From Candidatus Scalindua sp. (GTDB taxonomy: Bacteria > Planctomycetota > Brocadiia > Brocadiales > Scalinduaceae), in contig JALDRA010000001.1 in assembly GCA_031316235.1 (NCBI GenBank), positions 210,001-242,000 on the forward strand: a stretch of 32,000 nt of DNA. Reading direction: 5' to 3'. Below the pieces are notes generated by a model, which had not been told where the DNA came from, did not search any database, and saw only the letters and a program-made list of their open reading frames with translations. The position numbers were made by a program, and so were the translations under genes. Position 1 is the first letter of the stretch, and each line of letters begins with the position of its first letter. Below are positions 1,732 through 31,338 of this stretch, piece after piece.

Positions 1732-2730
1732 ATGCGCAAACCGATTTTCCGAGCAATTGGATGTTTGATAATTTCCCAATTAGTGTTAATGGGATGCCAG
1801 ACTCCCATCTCCCAAATTAACAAATCCAGCCATGATGATCTAACACGCAAAGAACACATCCTTCAAATGGATACCTTTTGGCGTATCGATGTGGTGGATG
1901 AAAAACGAATGGACCTATCCGGACTGGTCATTGTGAATGACGAGAGATTCCTCACCATTGATGACAAGCAGTTCAATCTATACGAACTCCGTCTTCAAAA
2001 GGGTTCATCCCGGGCATACATTGTCGCTTCGGATTTGATCCGCATTGAAGACCTGAAAGAATTGCGAGAAACGAAAACAGGCCAATTGGACTGCGAAGGA
2101 TTAGCAGTTGATGCGGACGGAAACATTTATATTTGCGAGGAGAAACACCGTTGGATATTAAAAATAAATTCAAATGGGAAGTTCTTAAATCGTTTGAAAA
2201 TCGACTGGTCGCCGGTGGAGCAATACTTCAATGCCCTCGATAAAAATGCATCCTTTGAAGGAATCGCAGTGAGCAAAAATAATCTTTACGTGATCAACGA
2301 GCGCGATAAAGCGCTAATTATCGTTGTGGATCTAAATTCTCTGAAAGTAATTGATCATTTTAAGGTTTACTCAAAGATGCACCCAAGCCTGTTTGTACAT
2401 TACTCCGGGTTATCATGGTTTGATGGAAAGCTCTATATTCTTCTTCGACACAGTCAGGTAATCCTCGAAATCGACCCAGAATCTCACAACGTGATTGCCG
2501 AATACAGTTTCAGAAACACTGCACGACAGTCTGAATTCAATTACAGATCCAGATTCGGGACCGGTTGCATGGAAGGCCTTCATGTCTCAGACGACTTTTT
2601 CTGGATGTTGACAGACAACAATGGGTGTGCCCTGAAAAATAACAAAGATGAAAAACACCCCACACTGATTCGATTTAAACGGCCGGAACACTCAAACCCG
2701 ATTGCAACCTTGAGCGGACATAAAGATTAA
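1732..2730 (+). CDS. Secreted lipoprotein, probable beta-propeller of the SdiA-regulated / phytase-like type
   Basis: Signal peptide with lipobox (MRKPIFRAIGCLIISQLVLMGC|QTP). Repeated blade-like motifs DCEGLAVDADGNIYICEE and SFEGIAVSKNNLYVINERD. The family call is from motif memory only. Confidence 0.55.
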   Translation: MRKPIFRAIGCLIISQLVLMGCQTPISQINKSSHDDLTRKEHILQMDTFWRIDVVDEKRMDLSGLVIVNDERFLTIDDKQFNLYELRLQKGSSRAYIVASDLIRIEDLKELRETKTGQLDCEGLAVDADGNIYICEEKHRWILKINSNGKFLNRLKIDWSPVEQYFNALDKNASFEGIAVSKNNLYVINERDKALIIVVDLNSLKVIDHFKVYSKMHPSLFVHYSGLSWFDGKLYILLRHSQVILEIDPESHNVIAEYSFRNTARQSEFNYRSRFGTGCMEGLHVSDDFFWMLTDNNGCALKNNKDEKHPTLIRFKRPEHSNPIATLSGHKD

Positions 2731-3050
2731 TCACCGGTAGGGAAATAATAGAAAGATAATGATACTCCATAGGCTAAAGATCAGGGTAGCTCTATGTTCG
2801 GCATAATCTAGCCATCTTAATATCAGTGTATAGGTGGTCGGCCCGACCCCGGATGTCACCCGTGAGTTTACTTACAAAATGCGCAGGGTAACGCCTTTTG
2901 GCCCAAGATTCTCTCAGGTTCGCGAAAACAGATCTAGATGATCGACGGATTTGATCTGCCCGCCCTGTTTAATAGTAAAATATAGATAAGTATCTGCTTT
3001 TCCTGCACGCTGAAGTTTAAAGTTTGATTACAGAAGAAACTAATGTTCTT

Positions 3051-3173
3051 TTATTTAACAGGGTAAACATAACGCTCTTCCTTGGGAAATCCTTTCGATA
3101 GTTCAAATATCGCAACCGCAAGTGCATAGGTTTTCTGATATACTCGCAAATCCTTTGCAGATTCAATTTTCAT
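3051..3173 (-). pseudogene. N-terminal stub (40 codons) of a four-helix-bundle protein (23S rRNA intervening-sequence protein family)
   Basis: Hand translation gives MKIESAKDLRVYQKTYALAVAIFELSKGFPKEERYVYPVK*. This matches the conserved N-terminus of the ~120-aa family (DL.V.Q.A..L...I...T..FPKEE.Y) but stops after 40 aa. Not in the ORF track because it is under 60 aa. Confidence 0.6.
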
Positions 3174-3183
3174 ATCATGCTGT

Positions 3184-3246
3184 CCTCAGACCTCAGACTT
3201 CTGTCTTCCGTCCTTAATCCTCCGTGCCTTTGTGGCTCCGTGTGAA
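3184..3246. repeat. Nine phased heptanucleotide units
   Basis: Parsed by hand: CCTCAGA CCTCAGA CTTCTGT CTTCCGT CCTTAAT CCTCCGT GCCTTTG TGGCTCC GTGTGAA. The array lies directly upstream of the four-helix-bundle stub. Confidence 0.9.
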
Positions 3247-3304
3247 ATTATTTTCTTTTTTGCCAACTAAATAGGTATGGTGTCCCCCGATTCCCCTAAA
3301 TTAT

Positions 3305-3661
3305 TTACCACCTTCTAATTCTAATACCACTGGGAGTAACTATTGTAATTGTTCGATTTAATTCATTTAAATCACAGCTTCTAAGTACCTTTTCTAACAA
3401 ACTGAGAATTGGCTTAATACCATCCTTATCCGGTCGAAGAAGTAAAACTCCACAGTGGGTTCCCGGAGGGTATATGCGGATATCGGCAAAACCTTTATCT
3501 GCTGTAATTAGAAACCTTTGCTCGGCTTGAACTATGGGCCACAAATCAGCGTCTTTGAAACCACCCATTTCTTGTTCTATAACACTAACGGCTTGATAAC
3601 CTTGCTCTCTAAGTAACTCAACAACTTTATTGGGGAGATCCTCATCAACCTTGATCTTCAT
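3305..3661 (-). CDS. DUF5615-family (PIN-like) putative toxin
   Basis: MKIKVDEDLPNKVVELLREQGYQAVSVIE...FLITADKGFADIR is typical of DUF5615. It sits 15 nt downstream of a DUF433 gene, the usual pairing. Confidence 0.75.
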   Translation of the reverse strand: MKIKVDEDLPNKVVELLREQGYQAVSVIEQEMGGFKDADLWPIVQAEQRFLITADKGFADIRIYPPGTHCGVLLLRPDKDGIKPILSLLEKVLRSCDLNELNRTITIVTPSGIRIRRW

Positions 3662-3676
3662 TACCGTATCCTTATT

Positions 3677-3913
3677 TCATGGAAATGGTACCATTATTTC
3701 TTGATGGATTATATCGGCAGCATAAGATAATGCGGCATACATATCTTCTGAGGATAATTGGGGATATTCTTGTTGAATTTCTTCCGGGGTCATACCATCT
3801 GCAAAACTACCTACAATCATAGATATTGGTATGCGAGTACCTTTAATACAGGTAGTTCCATGGTGAATACTCGGGTCAGTGCTAATTCTGCCCTTCCAGT
3901 CTATACGTTTCAT
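3677..3913 (-). CDS. DUF433-family putative antitoxin
   Basis: RISTDPSIHHGTTCIKGTRIPISMIVGSFADGMTPEEIQQEYPQLSSEDMYAALSYA matches the DUF433 signature (G.P.I.GTRI.V..I......G.s.eEI...YP.L). It is upstream of the DUF5615 gene. Confidence 0.8.
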   Translation of the reverse strand: MKRIDWKGRISTDPSIHHGTTCIKGTRIPISMIVGSFADGMTPEEIQQEYPQLSSEDMYAALSYAADIIHQEIMVPFP

Positions 3914-4491
3914 TTAGATAACACCTATTTCTTAAGTTATTCGGCCTCTTTTATATTTATAATAATACGATTGTGAGTGAGGCATGTCAAGTGAGAATAG
4001 GAGAAAAGGAAAAAGACTTCTGGAAAAATAAAAAAAGGGGCAAGCAAATAAAGGATTCCACAAATCTGCAATCGTAAAACCCAAATAATTATGCATATAT
4101 CATTTGTAGACCCCAATGCCGGATTCAATGAAATTGAAAAAGACGAAAAAGGGTTCCATCGAAAATTTGCACACAGTAAGATACACTGGGCAGTAATGGT
4201 TAGTAGTGGTTGATTTGGTGATTAAGCCAAGCCATATCACAAAACCATATCAAGAAGAGCAAGTAAAAAGAGCCATTGAGGAGGATCAAACCTACATTGG
4301 TAAATGTCATTATTTGTTCATGGAGATGAACCTGTTCAGTTATATTCAGAGCTATGAGAAGTTGTTGAAAATGTGACCAGACACTTTAAAGCGGAAAGAC
4401 GGCCCTGCTAGACCTTACACAAACATGATTTTTTTATTAGGAAGTGTATAGGTGGTTATAGATTGGTCGGGCCACGCTAACTTGCTGAATA

Positions 4492-5233
4492 TCAATGAGT
4501 AATACACCAATAGTAGGTGTTTTGAGCCCCTATATTGTCGTTTTTGCCACCAGAAAGCGCGTTATAGGCCACACTCTCTTCTCGAAGCCGAAATTCTGTA
4601 TCTGTTTCAATAATTTCACGCCCTTTTGCCAATATGTCCAATTTATCCTTTATTGCATTGGTAAATCGTTCACTGCCAACTGCTATACTTTCGGTCCATT
4701 GTGGCTGTCTGCAATTATCTCCATTCGCCAGAGAGTCATTTATCAAATCGTAAGTTCAAACTGTTTTCAGAAAAATGTCATTCCCGCATGCTTTAAGCGG
4801 GAATCCAGCGGTGACGACAATTCTGGATGCCCGATAAAGTCATTCGGGCATGACAAAAGAGGGTATATAACCTAAAAAGTTTGATCACTGAAAACAGTTT
4901 GAACTTACCTTTGTGAGTTTTTCGGAATAGCTCGTAAGATTTAAAACCTGCTAACCGAGCGAGTTTTTCATACGCGATAAGGACACATTTTTTACGTGGG
5001 TTCTGAATCTCAATGTAGCCGCCATATTGCCATTGAGACGGGTGGGTTACTACACCATTACGGACCATATTCAAATCAATGTAGCTGAGACATCTGACGT
5101 CCTCGATTGCTGTCGCATGATAACGGTCTTCCCAGAAGGCACCTTTTCTCTTTTTTCTCAGGTTGTACTCCTGACCAGTTCGACCAGCAACTAAACGAAT
5201 TTTATTGTTCATCATGCCCTTTATGCTCTTCAA
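4492..5233 (-). pseudogene. RAYT-like / IS200-superfamily Y1 transposase, N-terminally truncated and split by a 160-bp insertion
   Basis: The upper ORF carries VAGRTGQEYNLRKKRKGAFWEDRYHATAIE...YIDLNMVRNGVVTHPSQWQYGGYIEIQNP. The lower ORF carries QWTESIAVGSERFTNAIKDKL...GREI. Both are conserved blocks of one protein family. The HUH-containing N-terminal ~100 aa are absent. The two ORFs become one frame if 4750-4909 is removed (verified codon by codon). Confidence 0.6.
4750..4908. mobile_element. 159-bp MITE-like insertion with 21-bp perfect terminal inverted repeats and a GTCATTCCCGC-type core
   Basis: GTAAGTTCAAACTGTTTTCAG (4750-4770) is the exact reverse complement of CTGAAAACAGTTTGAACTTAC (4888-4908). 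Inner inverted pair TGTCATTCCCG (4776-4786) / CGGGCATGACA (4845-4855). A C flanks both ends (4749 and 4909). Confidence 0.8.
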
Positions 5234-5538
5234 GGTTCCTTAACGGGCAAATTAATATTATCAAATGGTCTTGCACCATGATGAATTGTAAGGATTTCTA
5301 CTTCTTTTGTTATAATGCGATAAATAATTCGGTAATTTCCTACTATTATTTCACAAATATCTTTACGGCCTATTTCAGGAACAACTCTTCCAGATTTGGG
5401 AAATATTTCAAGTCGATCTGTCGCTTCAAATATTCTTATTGCAAATAATTTTGCATATTGAAAAGAATCACGAGCAATAAATAAACAAATTGAGTCCAAA
5501 TCATCAAGTGCTTGATCTGTCCAGGTTACTTTAACCAT
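5230..5538 (-). CDS. ParE/RelE-superfamily toxin
   Basis: WTDQALDDLDSICLFIARDSFQYAKLFAIRIFEATDRLEIFPKSGRVVPE...YRIIYRI...VEILTIHHGAR is the ParE (plasmid stabilisation) pattern. It overlaps the upstream small gene by 13 nt. Confidence 0.8.
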   Translation of the reverse strand: MVKVTWTDQALDDLDSICLFIARDSFQYAKLFAIRIFEATDRLEIFPKSGRVVPEIGRKDICEIIVGNYRIIYRIITKEVEILTIHHGARPFDNINLPVKEP

Positions 5539-5708
5539 CGTTCCATTCTCTTTTTTGCCTCTTGCTGGGATATTTTCTGTCCTTTATTTGCTTGTTTAAT
5601 ACCTCGGTCAACTTTGTAAAGGACGTATAATTTTTCCATTGCATCTTCTATAGTTGCATCTTGTGGAAGATCCTTAATAGCTTTAATTGCTTGTTCTTTT
5701 TCAATCAT
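5526..5708 (-). CDS. Putative cognate antitoxin of the ParE-like toxin
   Basis: 60-aa acidic/basic helical protein (LPQDATIEDAMEKLYVLYKVDRGIKQANKGQKISQQEAKKRMERW) directly upstream of the toxin and overlapping it. The call rests on context and size. Confidence 0.6.
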   Translation of the reverse strand: MIEKEQAIKAIKDLPQDATIEDAMEKLYVLYKVDRGIKQANKGQKISQQEAKKRMERWLK

Positions 5709-5832
5709 AATTATTCCTCCAATTTATTGATTTTTTATTTTGCCACATAACACGCTTACTGTACGGCAAAGACGTAACTAAGTTAAGTAAAATCTGCCAG
5801 GGCGTTTAAAAAAAATCACCGCCTGACTTTTT

Positions 5833-5970
5833 TTAACAAAGTAATGTTTCTTTATCCTGGGTCTTACAAATTTGACGGATCAAATCTCGTTCTCGTTCAG
5901 CAACTTCTCCCCGCAAAACTGGCTTGTGTTATTTGGTAATCCAAACAATATGGTACTTCAGGTCATAAAA
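5833..5970 (-). pseudogene. IS200/IS605-type TnpA (Y1 transposase) N-terminal remnant with an internal stop
   Basis: Hand translation gives FYDLKYHIVWITK*HKPVLRGEVAERERDLIRQICKTQDKETLLC*. It matches the TnpA N-terminus (Y.Y H.VW..KYR+.VL.G.VA.R...LIR.IC). TAA at 5929-5931 replaces the conserved Tyr codon, and the rest of the gene is missing. Confidence 0.65.
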
Positions 5971-6218
5971 TGGTAAAGAGCAGACGCATAAACTTACAAA
6001 GCTTTTGTCAGTAAATAAGTTATGTGAGATGTTAGTGGTGATTTTTTGTAAAAAGAGTGACAAGAAGAATGTACCAACGACTCAGGATGCCGTATTTTAA
6101 AGGGTTTTGCAAAACAATTTACAACATGCAAAAGTAAAATTACAAAATACGATGCCCAACTTGTATAATAGAAGTCACACAACAACACAAACTACTATAC
6201 AAGAAAGGGCACTCAAGA

Positions 6219-7262
6219 ATGCTACCATTATCACAAATTGAAAGCAACCAAAAACCACTTCTCATTCACACCGTTCACGAAGACGACAAGGTACTGCTTA
6301 ATACGCCAGATGCAGAGTGGTTTAGAGTCTTATATTATTTTCCCTGTAAAATAGAGAAAGAAGTAGTCGGAGATACAACCCACTATTATGCGTATTCAGG
6401 GTTTGAGACAGTAAAGTATAAAGACAAAGACGGCAAGGAGCAGAGGAAGTCGCAATCAAAGTTAACCAAGAAGTGTCGCTGTCAAGACAGAGACAAGTGT
6501 GAACATGACTGGGTACTGGCAGATGAAGGAGCGGGAACAATCGTGAAATCCATAACAAAGATGTATTGGGGCCACAAAGCAAGCATTGTCGGTTTTCCCC
6601 GTCAAGGGGTGCCTTTGGATGCAAGGGCGGTGTTGGATGGACCGACCCATGATGTAGAGACATTTCTTCCGCATATAGAAGAAGTATTTGATACCTATCC
6701 GGTAATTAAAGAATCGGTTAAAAGAGCATTGTATGATAGTGCGTGTGATAGCAAAGATTTGAAAGATAAGTTTATGGATAAACTTGGGATGGAATTAAAG
6801 GCATCTTTAACTCCAAGGCGTCAGAGGGAAGTAACAGTTGGGTTGCCGCGTGGTATGGAAAAGATAACGCCGTATGGTGCCGTTATTTGCAATGGGGGCC
6901 ATGAGATGGATTACAAAGGAATGCGTTATGAACGAGAGAAATTCATTTATCATGCCCCAACGGATACAGATGGTGGATCGGTGTGTTCAACATGCCGGCA
7001 TCAGGTAGAGTGTTGCCCCAATTCGCTAACCGGCAGGATGATTAATATATCATTTGGATTGTTACCCCACATAGACACAGAAGACCCTTCGATGGCAAAG
7101 AGATTTAAGGCGATAATGACACGTCGCCCTTCAGTTGAGCGGATGATAAAGCGGCTGAAGTGTGATATTGGTGATGATCGTTTAAGCAAGAGAGGGAATC
7201 TCTCATTTCAGGCATACCTGGATAAGACGATGATTGCTTTTCACCTCTTGTTACAGAATTAA
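6219..7262 (+). CDS. DDE transposase, IS4/IS5 superfamily (IS1182-like features)
   Basis: YWGHKASIVGF...GVPLDARAVLDGPTHDVETF, then ALYDSACDS, then RRPSVERMIKRLKCDIGDDRLSKRG follow the DDE_Tnp_1 order. There is a Cys-rich CSTCRHQVECCP block. The N-terminal region is atypical and short. No convincing terminal inverted repeats were found. Confidence 0.6.
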   Translation: MLPLSQIESNQKPLLIHTVHEDDKVLLNTPDAEWFRVLYYFPCKIEKEVVGDTTHYYAYSGFETVKYKDKDGKEQRKSQSKLTKKCRCQDRDKCEHDWVLADEGAGTIVKSITKMYWGHKASIVGFPRQGVPLDARAVLDGPTHDVETFLPHIEEVFDTYPVIKESVKRALYDSACDSKDLKDKFMDKLGMELKASLTPRRQREVTVGLPRGMEKITPYGAVICNGGHEMDYKGMRYEREKFIYHAPTDTDGGSVCSTCRHQVECCPNSLTGRMINISFGLLPHIDTEDPSMAKRFKAIMTRRPSVERMIKRLKCDIGDDRLSKRGNLSFQAYLDKTMIAFHLLLQN

Positions 7263-7657: not shown

Positions 7658-8326
7658 CTAAAATTCTCTTGTCGGTAAATCTTTGAGCACTTTGTTTGGC
7701 AAGTTACTGTCAGGAAATAAGATGACCCAAAAAGTGAGAAACACAATTTTCAAGTCAATGGTGAATGACATATTATTTTGATACCATATCTCTAATGCTC
7801 CTTTATATGGCATTACCAGCCTTTCATAACATTCAAGGGGCGGTAAATGAGAGTCTGTCACTAATTTCTCTTCGTCCCTAAACATGATCGATCCAATACC
7901 AGTTAATCCAGGTTTTATATTGTAAACAGATTCTTTAAGTATCCTGTTATATCTATTAAATCCTGCTTCCATTAGTGGTCTGGGACCAATTAGTGTCATA
8001 TCACCTTTTAAAACATTTATGATTTGTGGTAATTCGTTAATTTTTGTCTTTCTGAGATAACTCCCTACAAATGTTACCCTTGAATCATTTCGCAAGGTCA
8101 CATCACCAGTTCCCATATTGGGACTATCTTTCAGCATGGTGGCAAATTTCCAGATTTTGAAAATTTGATTATTGTAACCTACGCGTGGTTGTTTATAAAA
8201 CACATACCCTTCACCTGTTACTCGAAGTAAAAGGAAAATTGGGGCAAATAAAGGTAAGAATATTATTAATGCTAATAATGAAACTACTACATCAATAACT
8301 CTTCTTGATAAGAGATACATTTTCAT
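7658..8326 (-). CDS. Small monotopic phosphoglycosyl transferase (bacterial sugar transferase, PglC/WbaP C-terminal type)
   Basis: RVIDVVVSLLALIIFLPLFAPIFLLLRV...YKQPRVGYNNQIFKIWKFATM...DSRVTFVGSYLRKTKINELPQIINVLKGDMTLIGPRP is the PF02397 pattern. The start is moved to ATG 8326 (or 8320) because track residues 1-49 are translated from an intergenic repeat. Confidence 0.85.
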   Translation of the reverse strand: MKMYLLSRRVIDVVVSLLALIIFLPLFAPIFLLLRVTGEGYVFYKQPRVGYNNQIFKIWKFATMLKDSPNMGTGDVTLRNDSRVTFVGSYLRKTKINELPQIINVLKGDMTLIGPRPLMEAGFNRYNRILKESVYNIKPGLTGIGSIMFRDEEKLVTDSHLPPLECYERLVMPYKGALEIWYQNNMSFTIDLKIVFLTFWVILFPDSNLPNKVLKDLPTREF

Positions 8327-8328
8327 TT

Positions 8329-8519
8329 TATACTCATCTCGTAATGGTTTTCGGATAAAATCCGAGATAAAACGGAGCGAGTATACCTTCACCAAGATTT
8401 GGTTTTCAGCCCGCCCGGCCTGTAAGCCATTATCCAGCCCCCGTCCGTACCGGCACGGGCGGGCGATACTCATTCTGGCGGGGACGGGTAAATCCGAAAA
8501 CCAAAACGGTTTTAGTATA
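8329..8519 (+). repeat. Modular spacer element, copy I
   Basis: Shares left end TATACTCATCTCGTAATGG, block AAAATCCGAGATAAAA, block TACCTTCACCAAGATTTGGTTTTCAGCCCGCCCGGCCTGTAAGCC and right end AAAACCAAAACGGTTTTAGTAT with the copies at 17.0 and 18.0 kb. It has an extra GC-rich hairpin block (8409-8417 pairs with 8456-8464). Confidence 0.9.
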
Positions 8520-9663
8520 AGGCATTCTTAATTTCCACTACCACTCTTTCTAATTCATCATCCGTAATGCTCGTGGAACATGGAATTGCCAGACAGGTTT
8601 TAAGGAGTTCTTCGCAAGCATCAGAATCAGTGACAACATACAGACAATCATGATACATTGGTAATTTATTCATTGGCATCCAGAAAGGACGAGAAATGAT
8701 TTTATTATCATTTAAATGTTTTAATAATTTGGTTTGATGGTTGGTCTTTATTGTAAAAAGCCAATTATTGTGATCAACATCATCTAATACCGTTTGAAAT
8801 CCAATGTCTCCGACTCCACTGAGATGCTCTTTATAGAAAGCGCCAATTTCTTTTTTCCGTCTGACAAAAGAGTCTAAGACTTCCATTTGAGCCACTCCTA
8901 TTGCAGCAAGAACGTTAACCATCCGGTAATTATATCCAATTTCATCATGATAATAACTCATTGGATTAACCTTGGCCGTTGTCGTAATATGCTTTGCCTT
9001 TTTTGCCAACAACTCATCATCCGACACGATAACACCCCCACCACCGGTGGAGATTATTTTATTTCCATTAAAGCTGAAACAACCCATTAGACCAAATGTC
9101 CCGGAATGTTTACTTTTATACGTAGTGCCAAGAGCCTCAGCAGCATCTTCGATTATTAATAAATTATGTTGATCAGCAATTCTTATCAACCTATCCATGT
9201 CAGTCATGTTACCTTGTACATGCACCGGCATTATGACTCTTATGCACCTGCCATCATCCTTAAGAATACAATCTCCTTTTAGATTCCCATACGTTTCCTT
9301 CGTCAGAAACTCTTCTAACAGATCCAAATTCATTTGCCAGTTATTCAAATCAACATCGATCAAAATAGGGTCTGCGCCGGTATATTTAACAGAATTCGCC
9401 GTAGCAACAAAGGTGATATTTGGAATAATTACATAATCATTCCGTTTTACTCCTGACAGTTGTAAGGAAATATGAAGCGCACAAGTTCCATTAACCGTTG
9501 CAACACCAAATTTTGCGCCAACATAATCAGCTACCATTTCTTCAAATTTGCCGACAAAGCCTCCGGCCGATGATATCCATCCAGTATCAAGGCAATCTTT
9601 CACATATTCCCATTCATTTCCCGAAATATTAGGGACTGACAGCGGAATTAACTTATTATTCAT
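8512..9663 (-). CDS. DegT/DnrJ/EryC1/StrS-family PLP sugar aminotransferase (PglE/LegC-like)
   Basis: IPLSVPNISGNEWEYVKDCLDTGWISSAGGFVGKFEE at the N-terminus. The Lys-containing block is CFSFNGNKIISTGGGGVI. Length is 383 aa. Confidence 0.85.
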   Translation of the reverse strand: MNNKLIPLSVPNISGNEWEYVKDCLDTGWISSAGGFVGKFEEMVADYVGAKFGVATVNGTCALHISLQLSGVKRNDYVIIPNITFVATANSVKYTGADPILIDVDLNNWQMNLDLLEEFLTKETYGNLKGDCILKDDGRCIRVIMPVHVQGNMTDMDRLIRIADQHNLLIIEDAAEALGTTYKSKHSGTFGLMGCFSFNGNKIISTGGGGVIVSDDELLAKKAKHITTTAKVNPMSYYHDEIGYNYRMVNVLAAIGVAQMEVLDSFVRRKKEIGAFYKEHLSGVGDIGFQTVLDDVDHNNWLFTIKTNHQTKLLKHLNDNKIISRPFWMPMNKLPMYHDCLYVVTDSDACEELLKTCLAIPCSTSITDDELERVVVEIKNALY

Positions 9664-9750
9664 GCTTTCCTGTCAAAAAATGATTCTTCGTGTTGAAGTC
9701 CTGACTGAACAAACTTTATACAATTCAAGTATATTAAATATCAGCGTTTT

Positions 9751-9923
9751 CCAGTTAGGTTTTTGCGTGTTTTATTTATTGTCCCAAAGTTGTCATTCCC
9801 GCATGTTTTAAGCGGGAATCTAGGATGAACAATCCTCTGGATACCCGATAAGCTTGTCATCGAGTGATTATATCGAGGAAGCGTTCGGGTATGACAAAAA
9901 CGTATACGCAAAAACCTAACCGG
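9751..9923. mobile_element. Second GTCATTCCCGC-core element, with different outer inverted repeats
   Basis: The core at 9791-9899 shares three blocks with 4776-4858: a 30-mer with 1 mismatch, a 16-mer with 2, a 17-mer with 1. Outer IR is CCAGTTAGGTTTTTGCGT (9751-9768) vs ACGCAAAAACCTAACCGG (9906-9923), 17/18 complementary. Confidence 0.75.
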
Positions 9924-9985
9924 ACACTAATTATTAAATATGAGAAAAGTATTGATTTTACTAATTTCATAAGGCATTGTTGCAG

Positions 9986-10209
9986 TTAATCAATTACCCT
10001 CCCCGGATTACCGACTACTGTTTTACAATCCAGTATTCGTGTTCAACAATAACTCCTGAGTTTATAATTGCACAGCGTTGGATTGTAGCCAACGAGTTGA
10101 CTATAGCATTGGCACCTAGCATAACTCCACCATGTAGAATTTACTTCTCAGATATTGAACAAGCCACCGGTGGTAATAGAGCGTAGCAGAATATTCGTTC
10201 GGTGTAGCA
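9986..10209 (-). pseudogene. C-terminal left-handed-beta-helix (hexapeptide) remnant of a NeuD/PglD-type sugar N-acetyltransferase
   Basis: Hand translation gives FCYALLPPVACSISEK*ILHGGVMLGANAIVNSLATIQRCAIINSGVIVEHEYWIVKQ*, then after a 1-nt shift VVGNPGRVID*. It shows hexad periodicity, the CIINTGAIVEHD-like block and the terminal VVGNPARVI-like motif. There is an internal TAA at 10141-10143, and about 55-60 aa between the two blocks are missing. Confidence 0.6.
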
Positions 10210-10214
10210 TCATA

Positions 10215-10895
10215 CTAGACGATACTTTCGGTTTTCAGCTCAAACACATGGCCGCCAATCTTAATAGTTGGCTGGAAAACATCATAGCTAGTTGCTCTCA
10301 CACGCCTTTCTATTTCTTCTGAGGTCATAGTTGGTTTGATCTCACACAATTCGTGGAACTCTTTTCTAGAAAATGGCTTTCGAGTCCATTTTTCTTTCGA
10401 CGATGGTAAGGGTTCGTTTCTCAGTATGTGTCCTACGATTTCATAGAAAAGGACTAATTGATAGTCATAGGTTCGGATAAGAAGTGAGTTGACATCATCA
10501 TTTGGAAAAACCGAGAATCGTTTAACAGCAACAATGGTGCCCGTATCAACCTTGGTAGCAATATGATGACATGTAACCCCATATTCCTCTGAACACTCGT
10601 ACAAAGCAAAATTATTGCAACCGATACCTGGATACTCTGGTGAAGCAGGGTGAATATTTATTGCCGCAACTTTGGCTCTTTTAATTAGGTACTCCGGGAC
10701 GATCCACCTTGAGAGATACGAAATTATATAATCACCGTCCCAACATCCTATGTCTTTGGGTAACGGATCACCCCACACACCAAGATACGCTGAAACATCA
10801 GAAAAATTATTCTTAATGAATTTAAGGGCTTTTGAGCAATGTTCGTCCTTTTTCTTACCGAGAAACAAAATTGAGCAGTTCATTTTGTTTGTCAT
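10215..10895 (-). CDS. Formyltransferase-family protein, probable sugar N-formyltransferase
   Basis: Formyl_trans_N-like core: AAINIHPASPEYPGIG supplies the Asn/His and KVDTGTIVAVKRF supplies the Asp. At ~226 aa it is similar in size to stand-alone sugar N-formyltransferases. It sits between a dehydratase and an aminotransferase. Confidence 0.65.
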   Translation of the reverse strand: MTNKMNCSILFLGKKKDEHCSKALKFIKNNFSDVSAYLGVWGDPLPKDIGCWDGDYIISYLSRWIVPEYLIKRAKVAAINIHPASPEYPGIGCNNFALYECSEEYGVTCHHIATKVDTGTIVAVKRFSVFPNDDVNSLLIRTYDYQLVLFYEIVGHILRNEPLPSSKEKWTRKPFSRKEFHELCEIKPTMTSEEIERRVRATSYDVFQPTIKIGGHVFELKTESIV

Positions 10896-11324
10896 GAGTT
10901 ATCCTTTTTATAAGAGTTAGCCAGGCACTGGAGTGACAGGAATTTAACATATTTACAACATTATTATTCTTTAAAAAATTATATACATCCTCTCTTATAA
11001 GCCTGTTGCACAAACCCAAAACCAGCCGTTTTTCATGCTTCATATAGCAGGGAGTGCCAGTAGCACACACATCATATTGATCACATTTTGGTTTGTGCAA
11101 CAGGCTATTATATGATAATTTCCAATGTCGATAAAGTAATCACTGGTCTGTAAAATTTGATTTGATAATCCGTCTCTTTCTGATCCCAGGTATTTTAAAT
11201 TATACGGGTTTTCTTGTTTTTCCGTTTTATCAAAATATCCTGTTACCTTTAAACCCATTGATTTAAAAATATCGCATACTACATACGCATGACCTGAGTA
11301 ACCGATGAGAAAAATGTCTTTCAT
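10855..11324 (-). pseudogene. N-terminal domain of a NeuD/PglD-type acetyltransferase, interrupted by a MITE and lacking its hexapeptide domain
   Basis: MKDIFLIGYSGHAYVVCDIFKSMGLKVTGYFDK...YFIDIGNYH matches the NeuD-family N-domain (IIGAGGHAKVV.D......G...VGF.DD...IGNN.IR). The frame breaks at the 108-bp insert. After removing it the reading is IGNYHIREDVYNFLKNNN. The ORF then runs into the formyltransferase start. Confidence 0.6.
11000..11107. mobile_element. 108-bp MITE with 17-bp perfect TIRs and a 5-bp TTATA target-site duplication
   Basis: AGCCTGTTGCACAAACC (11000-11016) is the exact reverse complement of GGTTTGTGCAACAGGCT (11090-11106). TTATA lies at 10995-10999 and 11108-11112. Deleting 107 or 113 bp restores the acetyltransferase frame. 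Confidence 0.8.
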
Positions 11325-11511
11325 TTAAGTGGATCGAATTAGTGTTTTCTGGCGTGGACGGGTGCAACGTTGCATAAGAACTACTTTTTTTCCTCTCGCC
11401 AAGACGCCAGGAACGCAAAGAGTAATGACTTCTCTCTTTTAATTTACTTTTATGTTTTTCTTCGCGCTCTTAGCGGCTCTGCGTGAGACTATTCTTTTTC
11501 ACTGAATCGAA

Positions 11512-12714
11512 TCACATTTTCTGATCTAAATTCTTTCCTGTTTCAATGTGCTGTAAAGACAGCACGACCTTACAGAACTCATCAACAATATGATCTTTAT
11601 TTATATTCTTTTTGGTTTTTAAGCTTTTTGCAAATGAGATAAAGTTTAATAGGCAATCTTTATCCATTTCTGCTTGTAATGACTTAATTATCCCCACATT
11701 TTGAAAACGATCAAAATTAATTATGTCACTTGTAGTATAGAATTCTTCAAAATCCTTTTCACCCGAGGTATCTGTTTTAAAGAAATAACAAGGCCACTGT
11801 TTATTCTTAATAAGCTCAGGTGCTTTCCTTTTTGCTTCCCCTTCTGATTCACACTCAAAGGGATCGAAACCATTTTGTTTTAAAAAATTTCTCGCAATAT
11901 CTGCAAAAGTTTCTTCATTTAAGCCCTGCTCTAACTTTGGAAAAAAGATATCACCATTATCGCCTAATATACAGGACAAAAGACATAATTGAGATGCTTC
12001 CTTGTGGGAAATAAAATATCTTTTTACATCATAAGGGGCAGATATTGCCTGTTGTTTTTTTAAACGATTAATAAAGCCAAATGGAAGGCTTCCATCTGAA
12101 AATGCAACATTTGCGAATCTGGCAGTTGAATAACGGTGCAGTGTCGAATGATATCGCAACACCTCTTCCATAACCATTTTACTTGCTCCCATTAAATTTG
12201 CAGGATTAGCGGCTTTATCAGAGGAGACGGAAAAGAAATTTCTGATTTTATACGGTAGATTTTCTAAAAAATCGTGCAGGAATAAAACATTAGTATCGAG
12301 CATCCGAATCAGACAATAAATATCTTTCTCCGAGCGAACATGTTTAATGGCACAAAAGTTAAGAACATAATCAAAGGAGAGAGACTCTTCGAAGTATCTC
12401 ATAAATTCCTGACTTCCAAATCCAATAGGGAGCGTTGAAAAATCCTCCGGAACACGTAAACCAGCACATGAACGAATGTCTCTAACAACCTCAACCAGGT
12501 TATTCTCGCTTAGATCGATCAGGGCCAATCCTTTTGGATTGAACTCAAGTATCGTCTTCACAACAGCTGAGCCAATTGAACCCGCAGCGCCAATAATTGC
12601 AACTCTGGCGTTCTTCAGGTTATCATTAATTGCCTTGTAATTGTTGGCGATATCTTCTTCAAATAAAGAAGCGGCTCTGCCAGTCACCATTTCTTCGTAA
12701 TCAAATAAATTCAT
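11512..12714 (-). CDS. CapD/PglF-like polysaccharide biosynthesis protein (NDP-sugar 4,6-dehydratase family)
   Basis: Rossmann motif VAIIGAAGSIGSAVV. The SSDKAANPANLMGASKMVMEE block corresponds to the STDKAV.P.N.MGA.K..AE signature of Polysacc_synt_2. Confidence 0.75.
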   Translation of the reverse strand: MNLFDYEEMVTGRAASLFEEDIANNYKAINDNLKNARVAIIGAAGSIGSAVVKTILEFNPKGLALIDLSENNLVEVVRDIRSCAGLRVPEDFSTLPIGFGSQEFMRYFEESLSFDYVLNFCAIKHVRSEKDIYCLIRMLDTNVLFLHDFLENLPYKIRNFFSVSSDKAANPANLMGASKMVMEEVLRYHSTLHRYSTARFANVAFSDGSLPFGFINRLKKQQAISAPYDVKRYFISHKEASQLCLLSCILGDNGDIFFPKLEQGLNEETFADIARNFLKQNGFDPFECESEGEAKRKAPELIKNKQWPCYFFKTDTSGEKDFEEFYTTSDIINFDRFQNVGIIKSLQAEMDKDCLLNFISFAKSLKTKKNINKDHIVDEFCKVVLSLQHIETGKNLDQKM

Positions 12715-12920
12715 GCATCTAACTTTTTAAGGTTGCCACAGTGCACAGGGACGAAACAGGAAAAATAATATAGAAACAGATACTTAGCCACAGAGGATAG
12801 TAGAGTAGAGAACAGGCGTAGTAGCTACAGGCTGTAGTTTGTGTTCACTGTTTCTCACCCTTTCGTCTGTGAGTGCCACAATATTACAACCATACCATAT
12901 TACCAACTCCCCCTCGTCAA

Positions 12921-12952
12921 ACCGTGCATGCGGTTTTCCCGCACACGGCTTT
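12921..12952 (-). ncRNA. Group II intron domain V
   Basis: The minus strand reads AAGCCGTGTGCGGGAAAACCGCATGCACGGTTT. It has the AGC triad, a GAAA tetraloop and a 2-nt bulge in the 3' strand, which is the canonical catalytic hairpin. Confidence 0.85.
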
Positions 12953-12985
12953 CCGACAGTCTTCATCTCAAGTATTCACAGGTAG

Positions 12986-14317
12986 TCAAATAAGCGCGTA
13001 TTTTGAGGGGTCGATTAGTCCGTATCTACTTACTAAGACCTTACATGCTCCTTGATTATAGAGCTTGCACTTGCGTTGACTTTTCCTCTTATAATATCTC
13101 GCCAATTTCTCTCTGAGATAATACCGGAGGTTTCTCTTCGCCTTGCCTGGATACGTTACTCCTTTTATTGAGAAATAATTAATCCAGCCTCTTATTATTG
13201 TATTCAAATCATTAGCTACATCTTGCGGAGGTTTATGCCCATTGTGCCACAGATACTCTCTTATCTTTTCCCTAACTTTCTTTTGAGATTTACAGCTTGG
13301 CTCAACGTTCCAATACTTCCTAAGCTTTCTACCAAGCACATCATCGTCAAACCTGAAAGTATGGCCAAGAAAGTCAAAGCTCTCATCAAAGGCATTTACT
13401 ATATTACTCTTATCCTCGTTAAGCTTTAGCTTCATCCTCTTTAGCAGTTTATTAAGGTCGTCAAGTGCTCTCTGCGGAATTCGTTTTGCCATCAATACCC
13501 AATCATCGCAATAACGAATGATCTTGATTCCACTTTGATAGAATGCACCACCCTCTCTGTTCACTGCTTTATCGAGCAAATGAAGATAAATGTTTGCTAA
13601 TAATGGTGAAATTACTCCCCCCTGCGGTGTTCCGAGCTTGTTTTTCTTCCCACCTGTAAGTCTGCCGTTCTCCATCACTGGCGCTTTTAACCACATTTTT
13701 ATAAGGTGCAGTACATTTTTGTCGCTTATCCTCTTGCCTACCAGCGTTAACAGTTCCTTATGTGGAATCGTGTCGAAGTAGGCGCTCAGGTCAGCATCAA
13801 AAATATCACACTTTCCTAGCCTCAGATTCTTCTTGATTTCCGTTACAGCACCTTTGGCTGAACGTTTCGGTCGAAAACCATAAGAGCTGTCTTCAAAATC
13901 CGCCTCAAAGATCGGTTCTATTACAAGCTTTACCGCCATCTGTAGTATCCTGTCTTTTATCACAGGAATTCCCAATGGACGAGTTTTGCTGTTGGCTTTA
14001 GCTATATACACTCTTAGTACCGGCTGTGGTTTATAGGTTCTGTTTTCAAGTTCCTCTACTATTTCAGCAAGGAACTTGTCTACTCCATATATTTCCACAT
14101 CCTCAAATGTCTTCCCATCTACTCCGGCGCTTCCTCTATTGGCTTTACAGCGCTTGTAGGATTCTCTTAGAAAATGAGGCAGTCTCACCTTGTCATACAA
14201 TACATAAAAACGAAATGTTTCCTCCTGTTTGGCTTTTTGATATAGTTTACGCTGAAAATCTCGGACTTTTTCCTTATCGCTCATTTGCGATTTAGGTCTT
14301 GTTTGTAGGTCGCCCAA
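12986..14317 (-). CDS. Group II intron reverse transcriptase/maturase
   Basis: RGSAGVDGKTFEDV, RPLGIPVIKDRILQMAVKLVIEPIFEADF, SYGFRPKRSAKGAV, DADLSAYFDTIPH, GTPQGGVISPLLANIYL, and IIRYCDDWVLMA (a YCDD variant of YADD). Maturase X block RGWINYFS. No HNH/En domain after it. Confidence 0.9.
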   Translation of the reverse strand: MGDLQTRPKSQMSDKEKVRDFQRKLYQKAKQEETFRFYVLYDKVRLPHFLRESYKRCKANRGSAGVDGKTFEDVEIYGVDKFLAEIVEELENRTYKPQPVLRVYIAKANSKTRPLGIPVIKDRILQMAVKLVIEPIFEADFEDSSYGFRPKRSAKGAVTEIKKNLRLGKCDIFDADLSAYFDTIPHKELLTLVGKRISDKNVLHLIKMWLKAPVMENGRLTGGKKNKLGTPQGGVISPLLANIYLHLLDKAVNREGGAFYQSGIKIIRYCDDWVLMAKRIPQRALDDLNKLLKRMKLKLNEDKSNIVNAFDESFDFLGHTFRFDDDVLGRKLRKYWNVEPSCKSQKKVREKIREYLWHNGHKPPQDVANDLNTIIRGWINYFSIKGVTYPGKAKRNLRYYLREKLARYYKRKSQRKCKLYNQGACKVLVSRYGLIDPSKYALI

Positions 14318-25944: not shown

Positions 25945-27057
25945 TCATAAAAACAGTGCCTCTACAATACGAGCCGCCGCTTTCCCATCACCATAAGGGT
26001 TTTTGGCCTTCGACATTGTTTTATACATTTCTTCATTCCTTAAAAGGTTACTGACACTCTCAACTATTTTGTTTTTATCTGCTCCTACTAAAGCAACACA
26101 ACCAGCATCAATACCCTCTGGTCTTTCCGTTACTTCACGCATTACGAAAACTGGCTTGCCCAAAGATGGGGCTTCTTCCTGAATACCACCAGAATCAGTC
26201 AAGATTATATATGCATGATCCATCAACCAGACGAAAGGAGCATAGGGCAACGGTTCTATTAAATGTATTCTATCGGTATTTCCCAAAATTCTGTGTACGG
26301 GTTCTTTTACATTGGGGTTCAAATGCACAGGATACACAACGCAGATGTCAGAATGAAGGGAAACCAAATCACAAATGGCAAGGCATATCTGTTCAAAGGT
26401 ATTCCCAAAACTTTCCCTTCTGTGTCCGGTAACGAGAATCATTTTTTTATCATTCATAATATTTTTTAAATCAGCGGGAATATCGTGTGGAGTTTTGCCA
26501 ACTTCCTGCCTTACCCACAATAGGGCGTCGATAACGGTGTTGCCCGTAACAAAGATTTTAGTTTGCGGAACGCCTTCTGACAACAGCGCCTGCCGGGCTC
26601 TGTCTGTAGGCGCAAAATGCAGATCAGCAATTACGGAAGTTACACGGCGATTAATTTCTTCCGGGAAAGGGGCGTGTTTATTATTTGTCCTGAGACCGGC
26701 TTCGATATGACCCACATGTATGCCATGATAAAATGCTGCCAGGCTTGCGGCCATGGTTGTTGTGGTATCGCCCTGAACTAATATCCAGTCGGGTTTTACT
26801 TCACGTAACACAGGATCCAGTGATGTCAAAACTCTGGCAGTTAATTGTGATAAAGATTGATTCCCTTGCATAAGGTCTAAATCAAAATCCGGTGTTATAT
26901 TAAATAAATCGAGCGCCTGATCCAGCATCTGCCGATGCTGAGCAGTAACACAGACAAGAGAACGAAGCTTGTAACAATCTTTTTCTAATTCCTTTATAAC
27001 CGGCACCATTTTGATGGCCTCAGGCCGGGTACCAAATATAGACAAAATGGTGAACAT
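25945..27057 (-). CDS. wecB: UDP-N-acetylglucosamine 2-epimerase (non-hydrolysing)
   Basis: [56 protein letters not shown] and [18 protein letters not shown] match along the full length. Confidence 0.9.
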
Positions 27058-27100: not shown

Positions 27101-28033
27101 TCATGTATTCTTGCGCAAAACAATGAAGAGATTGTGATGCGGCTCTCTTGACTGATAATTGTGCTTGTTCGGTAGTATATTTTTCCTGCATCTCCTCAGG
27201 AAATGTAATATGTGCAGAGCACTCAACATATTTTTTACAGCCAACTTAACGTTGCTTTCCTTGCTCTTCGCACCAGTAATACCTCTACCCCCACCATAGA
27301 GTGTGCAAACAACTTTCAGACCGTGTTTCTCGGCAAATTTCCCAACTGTGGAGGCAGAAAAGAAGTACAAATGCTCAAAACTAGTCGAGAACCCAATCCA
27401 GTTGTCAAAACCGACAGATTTACCACATTCAAAACTTGGCGTTGAAAGACAGAGAATGCCTTTCTACGCGAGAAGAAAAGATGCTTTCGCAAAGAACCTA
27501 TCAGGATTCGTCAGATGCTCGATCACCTCAAAGGCAAAAAGTGCATCATATTTCACTTCAGGGTCAACGTCCTCTATTGTCCCGACGTGAAAAGGAATCG
27601 CTTTGTAACGTGATCTTGCTTCCGTTATAGCAGACTCCGAAATATCAATTCCGGTGACACTAACTCCCATATTATGTATGACGTGACAGAATTCACCTGT
27701 CCCACAGCCAAACTCCATCGCTTTGGCAAAAGATTTTATGCCTGCTTCTCCTAAAACACGCAACCTCATTTTCGAAGTCCTAAGCATACCTTGTCTTGTT
27801 TCATCAGAAAAGTAGTTGTCAAAGCCAATAGAGGAAGGTGACATAAAATAATCCCTATCATAGAGTAACGGGATAAGGTCTTCTTTGGGCCTAGGATTTA
27901 GGTACACAAGACCGCAACTCTTACATTGAACTATTTGAAAACCATCCGGTCTTTGGAAGATGTCCTCGTGGTTTCTCAGACCACATAGATTGCAGTCGTA
28001 CTGAGCCAGTTGAGTATCGGTCCACTTAATCAT
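27101..28033 (-). pseudogene. Zn-ribbon plus class I SAM methyltransferase interrupted by a single in-frame TAG
   Basis: CNLCG...CKSCG ribbon and motif I AMEFGCGTGEF. Track ORFs 27464..28093 and 27101..27370 are in the same frame (both low coordinates are 2 mod 3). Reading through gives FFAKASFLLA*KGILCLSTPSFECGKSVGFDNWIGFSTSFEHLYFFSASTVGKFAEKHGLKVV, which is homologous-looking on both sides of the TAG at 27464-27466. Confidence 0.7.
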
Positions 28034-29001
28034 CCTGATTCTTTGGCTTCCATCTGAATGTTGTAGTAATCCTGATTCTTCAAGCGCCAACAACTCAGGT
28101 CTCTTCTTAGAAGCGTCTCAATATCCTTGATCTCTTGCTCGTAGTATGTAGCAAGCGCCATGAGCGTTTCAGTGGGAGCAGCGGTCCGACCCATCTTCAT
28201 ATTTACCTCCCAAAGGGTACGATAGACCCGCCAAAGCAGTTTCAAGAGCCTAACCGGGATAATTGGCCTTAGCTGCTGCCCAATCATGACTAATATAGGC
28301 GTCATTAGTTCATGAAGACAAAGCAACACAACACTACGCGGCGTCTGCGCTGGATTATGTATTTTCATATCTGGCTTGAACTCTGTAGAGATATCCAAGA
28401 AATGACACACTTTGGCAAACTCACTTGCGGGGTCTCTCTCGAAATCATCGAATATTATTACATGTACGTTCTCGCCGCCGAATTCCGATAAGTAGCGCGA
28501 CAGTTGTTCGGCGTACTTGCCGACCTCACGGTACAAGAGATACTCATTAGGAAACCTAAATCTCTTCGGAATGCACTTCCCCTGACTTCTGCCAGTTTCA
28601 GCTACCAGCGCATCCTGTAATCGAGTAATACTCTCAATACCCATTTTCAAATACTGAGCATGCAAAGAGACGACTAAATCAACAGGATTTCTAAGCATTG
28701 CTATAATTTTTGCACTAGGCGCATAATTATGTATTGCGCGAGCGGCCTTCTTGGAATACAAGTATGAAGTGGTTGATTCCCCGATTCGAATTTCGCCACT
28801 ATATCCCCGGAAACAAAGAAGATATTCCTCCTCAGTCTGCGGATAAGTGGGACATGAAAAATCCGGCGCCAAGAAGCAAGGTTCCTTAGTCTTTGACATG
28901 AATACATCTGGATGCTCGGATAAGTAATTGTGCAAGGACGTCGTACCCGACTTCGGTGCTCCAACGATAAAAAAATTAGGTTTGCAAGTGACGTCGGTCA
29001 T
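28030..29001 (-). CDS. PAPS-dependent sulfotransferase
   Basis: 5'-PSB loop FFIVGAPKSGTTSL and 3'-PB motif MLRNPVDLVVSLH. Start ATG 29001 forms ATGA with the flippase stop, and its own stop forms ATGA with the methyltransferase start at 28033. Confidence 0.85.
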   Translation of the reverse strand: MTDVTCKPNFFIVGAPKSGTTSLHNYLSEHPDVFMSKTKEPCFLAPDFSCPTYPQTEEEYLLCFRGYSGEIRIGESTTSYLYSKKAARAIHNYAPSAKIIAMLRNPVDLVVSLHAQYLKMGIESITRLQDALVAETGRSQGKCIPKRFRFPNEYLLYREVGKYAEQLSRYLSEFGGENVHVIIFDDFERDPASEFAKVCHFLDISTEFKPDMKIHNPAQTPRSVVLLCLHELMTPILVMIGQQLRPIIPVRLLKLLWRVYRTLWEVNMKMGRTAAPTETLMALATYYEQEIKDIETLLRRDLSCWRLKNQDYYNIQMEAKESG

Positions 29002-30951: not shown

Positions 30952-31338
30952 TTAATCAAAAGGATTTGTAAATTCAAGTACTTCTATCGCTTTAAAATCA
31001 TTTACATTTCTTGTTTTCAGATTCAAATTATTGAGAACTGCTGTAGCTGCTATAATCGCATCTGCAAGCTTTATGTTTGTCCTTCTTTTTAATTCAATAG
31101 CTTTGTTGGCAATACCTTCATCTACAAGATAAGTATTTGCATATTCAAGCAGTCGTTTGCATTTTTCAATGCCATCAGGTGTGTGCTTATCCCATCCAAG
31201 AAATTCTATCTTTGTAATTACAGAAATATTAAAGGCTTTTTGAGAAATAATGCTGTCCATAAAAATTATACTCTTCTCTGATCCTTTGGTATGGTATATT
31301 AAAATATTCGTATCTATCAGATACTCAGTTGCAGGCAT
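30952..31338 (-). CDS. vapC: PIN-domain toxin
   Basis: YLIDTNILIY (first acidic residue), a mid-protein ITKIEF block and C-terminal LADAIIAATAV...LKTRNVNDF make a classic VapC layout. It overlaps the upstream small gene by 14 nt. Confidence 0.85.
   Translation of the reverse strand: MPATEYLIDTNILIYHTKGSEKSIIFMDSIISQKAFNISVITKIEFLGWDKHTPDGIEKCKRLLEYANTYLVDEGIANKAIELKRRTNIKLADAIIAATAVLNNLNLKTRNVNDFKAIEVLEFTNPFD

Follow-up and report, generated by a model that had tools for sequence, protein, structure and literature searches.

A formyltransferase gene inserted into an acetyltransferase gene of a Candidatus Scalindua glycan cluster: a possible switch from N-acetyl to N-formyl amino sugar

In a stretch of 32,000 nucleotides from Candidatus Scalindua sp. 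(assembly GCA_031316235.1, contig JALDRA010000001.1, positions 210,001 to 242,000; called the window below, with a GC content of about 40%), an intact formyltransferase (FT) gene stands among the remains of a NeuD/PglD-family acetyltransferase gene. The site lies in the last module of a minus-strand Wzx/Wzy-type glycan cluster carried by the window, and this module has the composition dehydratase / acetyltransferase / LegC-family aminotransferase / PglC-like initiating transferase. Two questions are raised by such an arrangement: whether one acetyltransferase gene or two have been broken here, and whether the incoming gene has taken over the acylation of a 4-amino sugar, as was proposed in a first-pass annotation made from the DNA letters alone.

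First of all, the conceptually repaired acetyltransferase fragments were used as the query of a homologue search, and the intact homologue, P0121, was then searched by tblastn against the window. P0121 is a NeuD/PglB/VioB acetyltransferase of 207 amino acids (aa) from a Ca. Scalindua metagenome-assembled genome (MAG); it is 84% identical to the repaired query (next-best match 41–46%), scores 205 bits on TIGR03570 against a cut-off of 160.8, and outranks every other database match by far for each of the four pieces of the window gene (pieces A to D, Table 1). These pieces are collinear with P0121 on both sides of the FT gene (A and B together E = 3e-46, C 2e-13, D 5e-6), with scores far above chance level, which agrees with the position between two acetyltransferase halves given to the FT gene at first. 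Pieces B and C meet exactly at W97|I98, with codons neither duplicated nor lost, and from this exact abutment without overlap it follows that one gene was split by the insert and not that two genes lie side by side. That is to say, the fragments are complementary parts of a single NeuD/PglD-family gene, into which the FT gene landed, as had been supposed; the accompanying suggestion that it replaced the middle of the acetyltransferase falls away, since no codon is missing at the junction. At the level of sequence, the acetyltransferase is shown to be a single gene destroyed by four lesions, namely a MITE-like element (miniature inverted-repeat transposable element), the FT insert between codons 97 and 98, a TAA stop and a 54-codon deletion; the domain remnants of the NeuD/PglB/VioB family are kept, but one frame of about 200 aa is not, and the gene is a pseudogene of that family. 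The interval 9793-11366 reads the same (100% identity) in four independent Logan assemblies made from different sequencing runs, so the lesions are real and not assembly errors. When the FT loci of other genomes were searched with the acetyltransferase fragments (tblastn) for the same split, it turned up nowhere but in the window's own copies (L085-L088), and a metagenome scan for DNA of P0121 returned only relatives of 29–48%.

The remaining three lesions can also be placed closely. The 108-nt MITE-like element interrupts the acetyltransferase at codon 72/73 and is bounded by a duplicated TATAA (11112-11108 and 10999-10995); excision of 113 nt, that is, the element with one TATAA copy, restores the frame and gives NYHIREDVYN, against NYHIREEVYN in P0121. 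Terminal inverted repeats, a target-site duplication and the absence of coding capacity are all seen in it, as in a MITE, and a second copy is not present in the 32-kb window. This lesion does not appear in the first-pass annotation, and it is the cause of the stop of the annotated upstream open reading frame (ORF) after 94 aa (11040-11324, minus strand; PglD_N, PF17836, E = 1.6e-10), of which piece A makes up the first 72 codons. The PglD_N piece upstream of the FT gene had been recognised correctly, but its ORF ends inside the 108-nt element and not, as was thought, inside the FT 5′ end; the ORF that does reach the FT 5′ end had been mistaken for it and is a second, frame-shifted one (11100-10855). 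On the downstream side, a C-domain remnant is present as described, but acetyltransferase sequence begins at 10155 instead of 10209, bases 10214-10156 being the tail of the insert. Within this remnant, the internal TAA stands at codon 102 (10143-10141), and the terminal VVGNPGRVID, with a stop codon ending at 9986, is found in piece D, whose alignment with P0121 reads ILDCKTVVGNPGRVID versus IPDCKTVVGNPGRVID. A frameshift and a deletion of 55–60 aa had been listed as separate lesions; both exist, but they are one event of about 163 nt, in which codons 138–191 plus 1 nt were lost at the junction 10036/10035 and the frame was shifted.

The divergence of the pieces from P0121 is uneven. Pieces B and C, which flank the insert, differ at 17 of 65 residues, against 3 of 72 in piece A and 1 of 16 in piece D (A and D versus B and C, Fisher p = 2e-4); for comparison, the intact dehydratase pair differs at 35 of 400. 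Three causes are possible: an already split allele with short diverged arms may have been imported by homologous recombination, the 94-aa PglD_N ORF may have remained under constraint, or gene conversion from a P0121-type locus may have taken place.

The insert itself consists of a 25-nt leader (10920-10896) with the Shine-Dalgarno sequence AAGGA, the FT ORF and a 59-nt tail (10214-10156), so that the FT gene has its own ribosome-binding site and is read in the direction of the cluster. At the DNA level, homology with FT loci from other phyla is limited to 10912-10212, from 17 nt before the ATG to the stop codon, with an identity of 84% to a locus in an Acidobacteriota MAG (L001; CBDCMS010000003.1, 8001-8681) and 77% to locus L004; the shared stretch before the ATG has the form CT(T)ATA(A/G)A(A/G)AGGA…ATG and includes the Shine-Dalgarno sequence. 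Therefore, the transferred unit is essentially a ribosome-binding site with an ORF. For the 59-nt tail no homology was found, and its folding energy is only −3.1 kcal/mol. Two candidate signs of the vehicle were considered and rejected. An integron cassette is not indicated, as the attC pattern (RYYYAAC ... GTTRRRY) is absent within 200 nt downstream of the FT gene in all 84 FT loci, including that of the window; and a target-site duplication or microhomology at the junctions is not convincing, as GCCTGG|CTAACT and TTGTTCA|ATATCT, even when aligned as well as possible, have only about 10 of 18 bases in common.

The protein encoded by the insert belongs to a family of at least 1520 members (a lower bound) of about 225 aa, which are 55–80% identical to the window protein and are distributed over Acidobacteriota, Bacteroidota, Chloroflexota, Cyanobacteria, Firmicutes, Planctomycetota and Proteobacteria. 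One member, P0007 (JGI, 350 aa, 74% identical), is fused to a SnoaL_2 domain (PF12680). The family is uncharacterised, since no NCBIfam equivalog reaches its cut-off with the FT, and none of the NCBIfam or PDB matches names a function for it; by sequence, the FT is matched best by WbkC, which formylates GDP-perosamine. The Asn-His-Asp triad, on which the first-pass annotation had made its proposal depend, is kept in the sequence: N80, H82 and D117 are invariant across 71 aligned homologues and line up with the N-x-H and D-T-G motifs of WbkC. In the AlphaFold2 model (pLDDT 94.1, pTM 0.89), the fold is that of a sugar N-formyltransferase. The best fold matches are WbkC, Rv3404c, VioF, WbtJ and their relatives (TM 0.75–0.79 over the whole length), ahead of ArnA, Fmt, HypX and FDH; the first 13 PDB matches consist solely of WbkC, Rv3404c and other sugar N-formyltransferases (TMq 0.69–0.79), and the match includes the N-terminal part, beyond the segment covered by PF00551. 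By the alignment and this model, the family is shown to combine the Asn-His-Asp triad with the fold of nucleotide-sugar 4-N-formyltransferases, and N10-formyl-tetrahydrofolate-dependent formylation of a nucleoside diphosphate (NDP)-amino sugar is its predicted activity. The dN/dS ratios of the FT gene against L001 and L004 are 0.14–0.20; as far as its sequence tells, the gene is intact, under purifying selection and functional-looking. The L001 copy is the closest one (80% aa and 84% nt identity), with a synonymous divergence (dS) from the window gene of only 0.55; it is compositionally foreign, with 45% GC within flanks of 57% GC and gene-free gaps of about 600 nt and 425 nt on either side, and is evidently, by these marks, a recent single-gene transfer. 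The family is highly conserved and appears to be moved horizontally often, and the FT gene of the window is likewise a horizontal acquisition.

Table 1. Position of the split acetyltransferase gene, its insertions and the neighbouring genes in the window
Feature	Position	Strand	Remarks
Acetyltransferase piece A, codons 1–72 (PglD_N domain)	11109-11324	-	69/72 identical to P0121, 96%; TIGR03570 positions 2–70
MITE-like insertion, 108 nt	11000-11107	-	21-nt terminal inverted repeats, 95% complementary, at 11106-11086 and 11020-11000
Acetyltransferase piece B, codons 73–97, ends at Trp97	10921-10994	-	tblastn versus P0121, 72% identity
Insert, 765 nt	10156-10920	-	between P0121 codons 97 and 98
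Formyltransferase (FT) gene, 226 aa, intact	10215-10895	-	PF00551, 58.9 bits versus cut-off 26.1, profile positions 90–171
Acetyltransferase piece C, codons 98–137, first hexapeptide turns, in-frame TAA	10036-10155	-	30/40 identical, 75% (77% without the stop codon)
Acetyltransferase piece D, codons 192–207 and stop, different frame	9986-10036	-	15/16 identical, 94%
4,6-dehydratase-type gene, Polysacc_synt_2, 400 aa, intact, upstream module step	11512-12714	-	PF02719, 115 bits
LegC-family (DegT-type) aminotransferase, 383 aa, intact	8512-9663	-	TIGR04181, 449 bits versus cut-off 420
Initiating phosphoglycosyl transferase, Bac_transf, PglC-like, intact	7658-8473	-	PF02397, 173.8 bits
UDP-GlcNAc 2-epimerase	25945-27057	-	
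Sulfotransferase ORF	28030-29208	-	
Wzx-like flippase	28998-30374	-	

Around the broken gene, the other steps of the bacillosamine-type module (dehydratase, aminotransferase and transferase) are intact by their family scores, as had been stated from the start; the native N-acetyltransferase is dead, and it may be the FT that fills the acylation step. The dehydratase is 91% identical to P0362, which is encoded on the P0121 contig; its scores on FnlA and PseB, the named dehydratase equivalogs, are only weak. P0241, a protein of a Ca. Scalindua MAG, shares 99% identity with the aminotransferase, and NCBI names these relatives of the two enzymes Candidatus Scalindua sp. The true start of the initiating transferase is probably near Met50. 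In the closest aminotransferase loci elsewhere (aminotransferases about 70% identical), the pair of aminotransferase and transferase is kept and the position of the acetyltransferase varies, one locus having none within ±6 kb.

From these data, a switch from an N-acetyl to an N-formyl sugar would proceed as follows. The FT gene would be transcribed with the cluster, and its product would use N10-formyl-tetrahydrofolate on the 4-amino group of the NDP-2-acetamido-4-amino-2,4,6-trideoxyhexose supplied by the dehydratase and the aminotransferase; the initiating transferase would then load a 4-formamido sugar in place of the 4-acetamido (di-N-acetylbacillosamine-type) sugar. A single insertion would both have brought the new acylase and inactivated the old one, and the MITE-like element, the stop codon and the deletion would be later decay. 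In favour of this are the sense orientation of the FT gene with its ribosome-binding site, its functional-looking product with the fold of sugar N-formyltransferases, the intact steps around it, the recurrence of FT relatives beside aminotransferase/transferase pairs (in L004 without an acetyltransferase), and the precedents of PseJ and of a Halorubrum cluster, described below. The insertion within the gene, which the first-pass annotation took as the starting point of its re-tooling idea, is established at codon resolution, and the predicted change of acyl chemistry is plausible. The switch is the best single explanation of the locus, and the whole of it has about an even chance of being right.

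The neighbourhoods of the FT genes in other genomes were surveyed at 84 loci of the family. An association with amino-sugar genes is present in the window and in seven other loci. In L004, where the FT is 76% identical to that of the window, the order is transferase-aminotransferase-FT, with no acetyltransferase in 16.7 kb; L054 has transferase-FT, L038 aminotransferase…FT…dehydratase and L059 NeuB-FT, and in L001 a 4,6-dehydratase-like gene lies upstream of the FT gene. The other two are L084 (an Oscillospiraceae MAG, 5998-7246), with aminotransferase-transferase-FT-acetyltransferase, and L019 (the cyanobacterium Leptothoe spongobia, 5206-6663), with transferase-acetyltransferase-FT-ATP-grasp-HAD-aminotransferase. 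Elsewhere, the FT gene is adjoined by genes for SAM synthetase, a DcuC transporter, OTCase and toxin-antitoxin systems, among others. In the Chloroflexota (Anaerolineae-type) loci within L011-L082, there is a conserved non-glycan neighbourhood with OmpR-type response regulators, a RimJ/RimL-like GNAT (directly upstream of the FT gene in 21 Chloroflexota loci) and an AP-endonuclease-type TIM barrel downstream, so the family may have a role other than, or beyond, glycan formylation. The GNAT was considered as a possible PseH, but it is RimL/RimJ-like and not PseH. A reading of the long gaps upstream of orphan FT genes as defence systems or riboswitches was likewise dropped: PADLOC gave no match, and the only Rfam match in the window is a group II intron.

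Several observations weigh against the switch. About 70 of the 84 FT loci have no glycan neighbours. In L019 and L084 the FT gene directly adjoins an intact NeuD-type acetyltransferase gene (TIGR03570), and it follows from their joint presence that an FT need not substitute for the acetyltransferase. No target-site duplication, terminal repeats or attC site, by which a mechanism of insertion could be recognised, were found at the insert. The FT gene could also have entered an acetyltransferase gene that was already dead. Moreover, a near-identical MAG carries an intact P0121 (MDR4499791/MEZ6177789) together with a 91%-identical dehydratase (MDR4499795) on a separate contig of 21.9 kb; on another contig, of 117 kb, it has a locus of the window type that includes the aminotransferase MDR4499387 (99% identical) and the identical 94-aa fragment ORF. 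The sugar could therefore be acetylated in trans, or a second pathway could run in parallel. P0121 would belong to a paralogous locus, or else to a strain variant that was binned together with the MAG, and for the exact P0121 sequence there is no record on the 4.15-Mb contig that holds the genes of the window.

Among the alternatives, the one that survives best, possible although less probable than the switch, is that a mobile FT gene with a role unrelated to the glycan landed as a passenger in a dispensable or already dead acetyltransferase gene; the module would then yield a free 4-amino sugar (an AAT-like, zwitterionic glycan), or another acetyltransferase would act in trans. The non-glycan setting of most FT loci, the foreign composition of the L001 copy with its low dS to the window gene, and the intact P0121 of the near-identical MAG are all consistent with a passenger, and the locus is one that attracts mobile DNA, as the MITE-like element, a second inverted-repeat element, a group II intron and transposases demonstrate. 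Against it, the insertion is sense-oriented, carries a ribosome-binding site and lies exactly at the acylation step of the module; FT, aminotransferase and transferase genes are co-located independently in at least five distant lineages; the fold class is that of sugar 4-N-formyltransferases; and the exact P0121 sequence is missing from the records of the 4.15-Mb contig, as mentioned above.

The idea of the N-acetyl to N-formyl switch can also be extended to the family as a whole, and in this wider form it is doubtful and put forward tentatively: the FT would be a self-sufficient, horizontally mobile "acyl-switch" gene, a single acquisition of which converts a surface N-acetylated amino sugar into an N-formylated one, for example as an escape from phages or grazers. 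If that were true, the Scalindua locus would be a displacement caught in the act, with the incoming gene interrupting the gene that it replaces, and the excess divergence of the approximately 65 codons flanking the insert would be due to the spread of the already split allele between Scalindua lineages by homologous recombination.

Improbable, in comparison, is the view that the whole cluster is decaying, so that neither acylation matters and the FT gene is intact merely because it arrived recently. The many mobile elements, the long non-coding stretches and a methyltransferase ORF (27464-28093) that looks truncated would fit such a decay, but the remaining genes of the cluster do not: the dehydratase, aminotransferase, transferase, four GT4 glycosyltransferases, Wzy, Wzx and 2-epimerase all have their full length and score strongly with their families, the sister MAG keeps the aminotransferase at 99% identity, and the acetyltransferase remnants beside the insert have diverged from P0121 by about 25% while the FT gene stayed intact. 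Finally, that the flanking fragments come from two different acetyltransferase genes, or from an assembly artefact, is refuted and hardly deserves credence: an overlap of about 18 aa (LLPPVACSISEK versus CHSSAWLT), seen by eye before the intact homologue was found because the insert tail (…ALLPPVACSISEK) resembled a second copy of the "HPSA.IS" linker, disappears in the P0121 alignment, where it lies in the tail while the pieces abut at W97|I98 and one protein is the best match for every piece, and the four independent assemblies are identical.

Compared with known systems, the locus shows familiar chemistry in an unusual arrangement of genes. The FT resembles WbkC (Brucella, GDP-perosamine), Rv3404c (dTDP-Qui4N), VioF and WbtJ in its fold, including a short C-terminal subdomain, over about 230–250 aligned columns, in the aligned N-x-H and D-T-G motifs and in its size (about 230–260 aa in those enzymes); however, the identity is only 17–22%, and the substrates of these enzymes lack a 2-acetamido group. 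The module has the same four-step gene set as PglF-PglE-PglD-PglC of Campylobacter jejuni, which makes di-N-acetylbacillosamine, but its acetyltransferase is a pseudogene with four lesions and its aminotransferase is of the LegC family. PglF is a protein of about 590 aa with an N-terminal membrane domain, and the dehydratase of the window is a shorter form of 400 aa.

The established parallel in chemical logic is PseJ, a formyltransferase of Anoxybacillus kamchatkensis (PDB 6ci2/6ci4) to which the completion of the Pse5Ac7Fo pathway is credited; the standard form of this pathway uses the acetyltransferase PseH (PMC11040635). The sequence of PseJ is only distantly related to the FT (36 bits over residues 43–142), and it feeds a nonulosonic-acid pathway instead of a lipid-linked initiating sugar. 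PseJ reportedly acts on the 4-amino group of UDP-2-acetamido-4-amino-2,4,6-trideoxyhexose, and we know of no case in which its gene lies inside the acetyltransferase gene that it displaces. In the legionaminic acid cluster of Halorubrum sp. PV6, whose glycan is N-formylated, the predicted formyltransferase HrrPV6_1050 adjoins the neuD gene HrrPV6_1051, so that a formyltransferase again stands beside a NeuD-type acetyltransferase in a pathway on a bacillosamine-type intermediate; there, in contrast, both genes are intact, it is N5 of legionaminic acid that carries the formyl group, and the organism is archaeal (PMC6137143). With sugar N-formyltransferases and an acetyl/formyl alternation of the PseH/PseJ type already known, the Scalindua locus is not a new kind of system.

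As to its meaning, when an enzyme gives way to an unrelated one of analogous function, this is usually deduced by comparison between genomes. Here the incoming gene sits inside the gene that it would replace, with a junction placed to the codon, which would offer a dated and testable example of surface-glycan diversification. The locus also draws attention to a large family of more than 1500 sugar-formyltransferase-like sequences, which remain 55–80% identical across phyla, and offers a candidate substrate for it, the 4-amino precursor of bacillosamine. If the switch holds, a 4-formamido sugar is to be expected at the reducing end of a glycan of marine anammox bacteria, the cell-surface chemistry of which is, to our knowledge, almost unknown; otherwise, what is left is a pseudogene with a passenger gene.

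Besides the genes of Table 1, the cluster encodes the four GT4 glycosyltransferases, a Wzy/O-antigen-ligase-like protein, a GH123-like protein and a methyltransferase. In the methyltransferase ORF (27464-28093, minus strand), the domain extends to the very end of the ORF, which is therefore probably truncated or frameshifted; there is an overlap between this ORF and the sulfotransferase ORF, and another, of about 210 nt, between the latter and the Wzx ORF, and the overlapping ORFs at 27464-30374 may reflect further lesions of the cluster or start codons set wrongly. Directly upstream of the dehydratase lies a group II intron with a reverse transcriptase/maturase ORF (12986-14317, RVT_1 and GIIM, minus strand) and an Rfam Intron_gpII match at 12800-12953; it extends beyond 14317. 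Genes of the mobile and addiction type border the cluster, namely two DDE transposase ORFs, a ParE toxin ORF, a PIN/DUF5615 ORF and a PIN-domain ORF (57-1667, 6219-7262, 3305-3661, 5230-5538 and 30952-31338), and the region 2730-6219 is largely without coding sequence. The spacer from the acetyltransferase stop (9986) to the start of the aminotransferase gene (9663) is unusually long, at 323 nt. It contains a second element bounded by inverted repeats (9750-9924; 19-nt arms with 137 nt between them), for which no other copies were found within the window and which may be another MITE.

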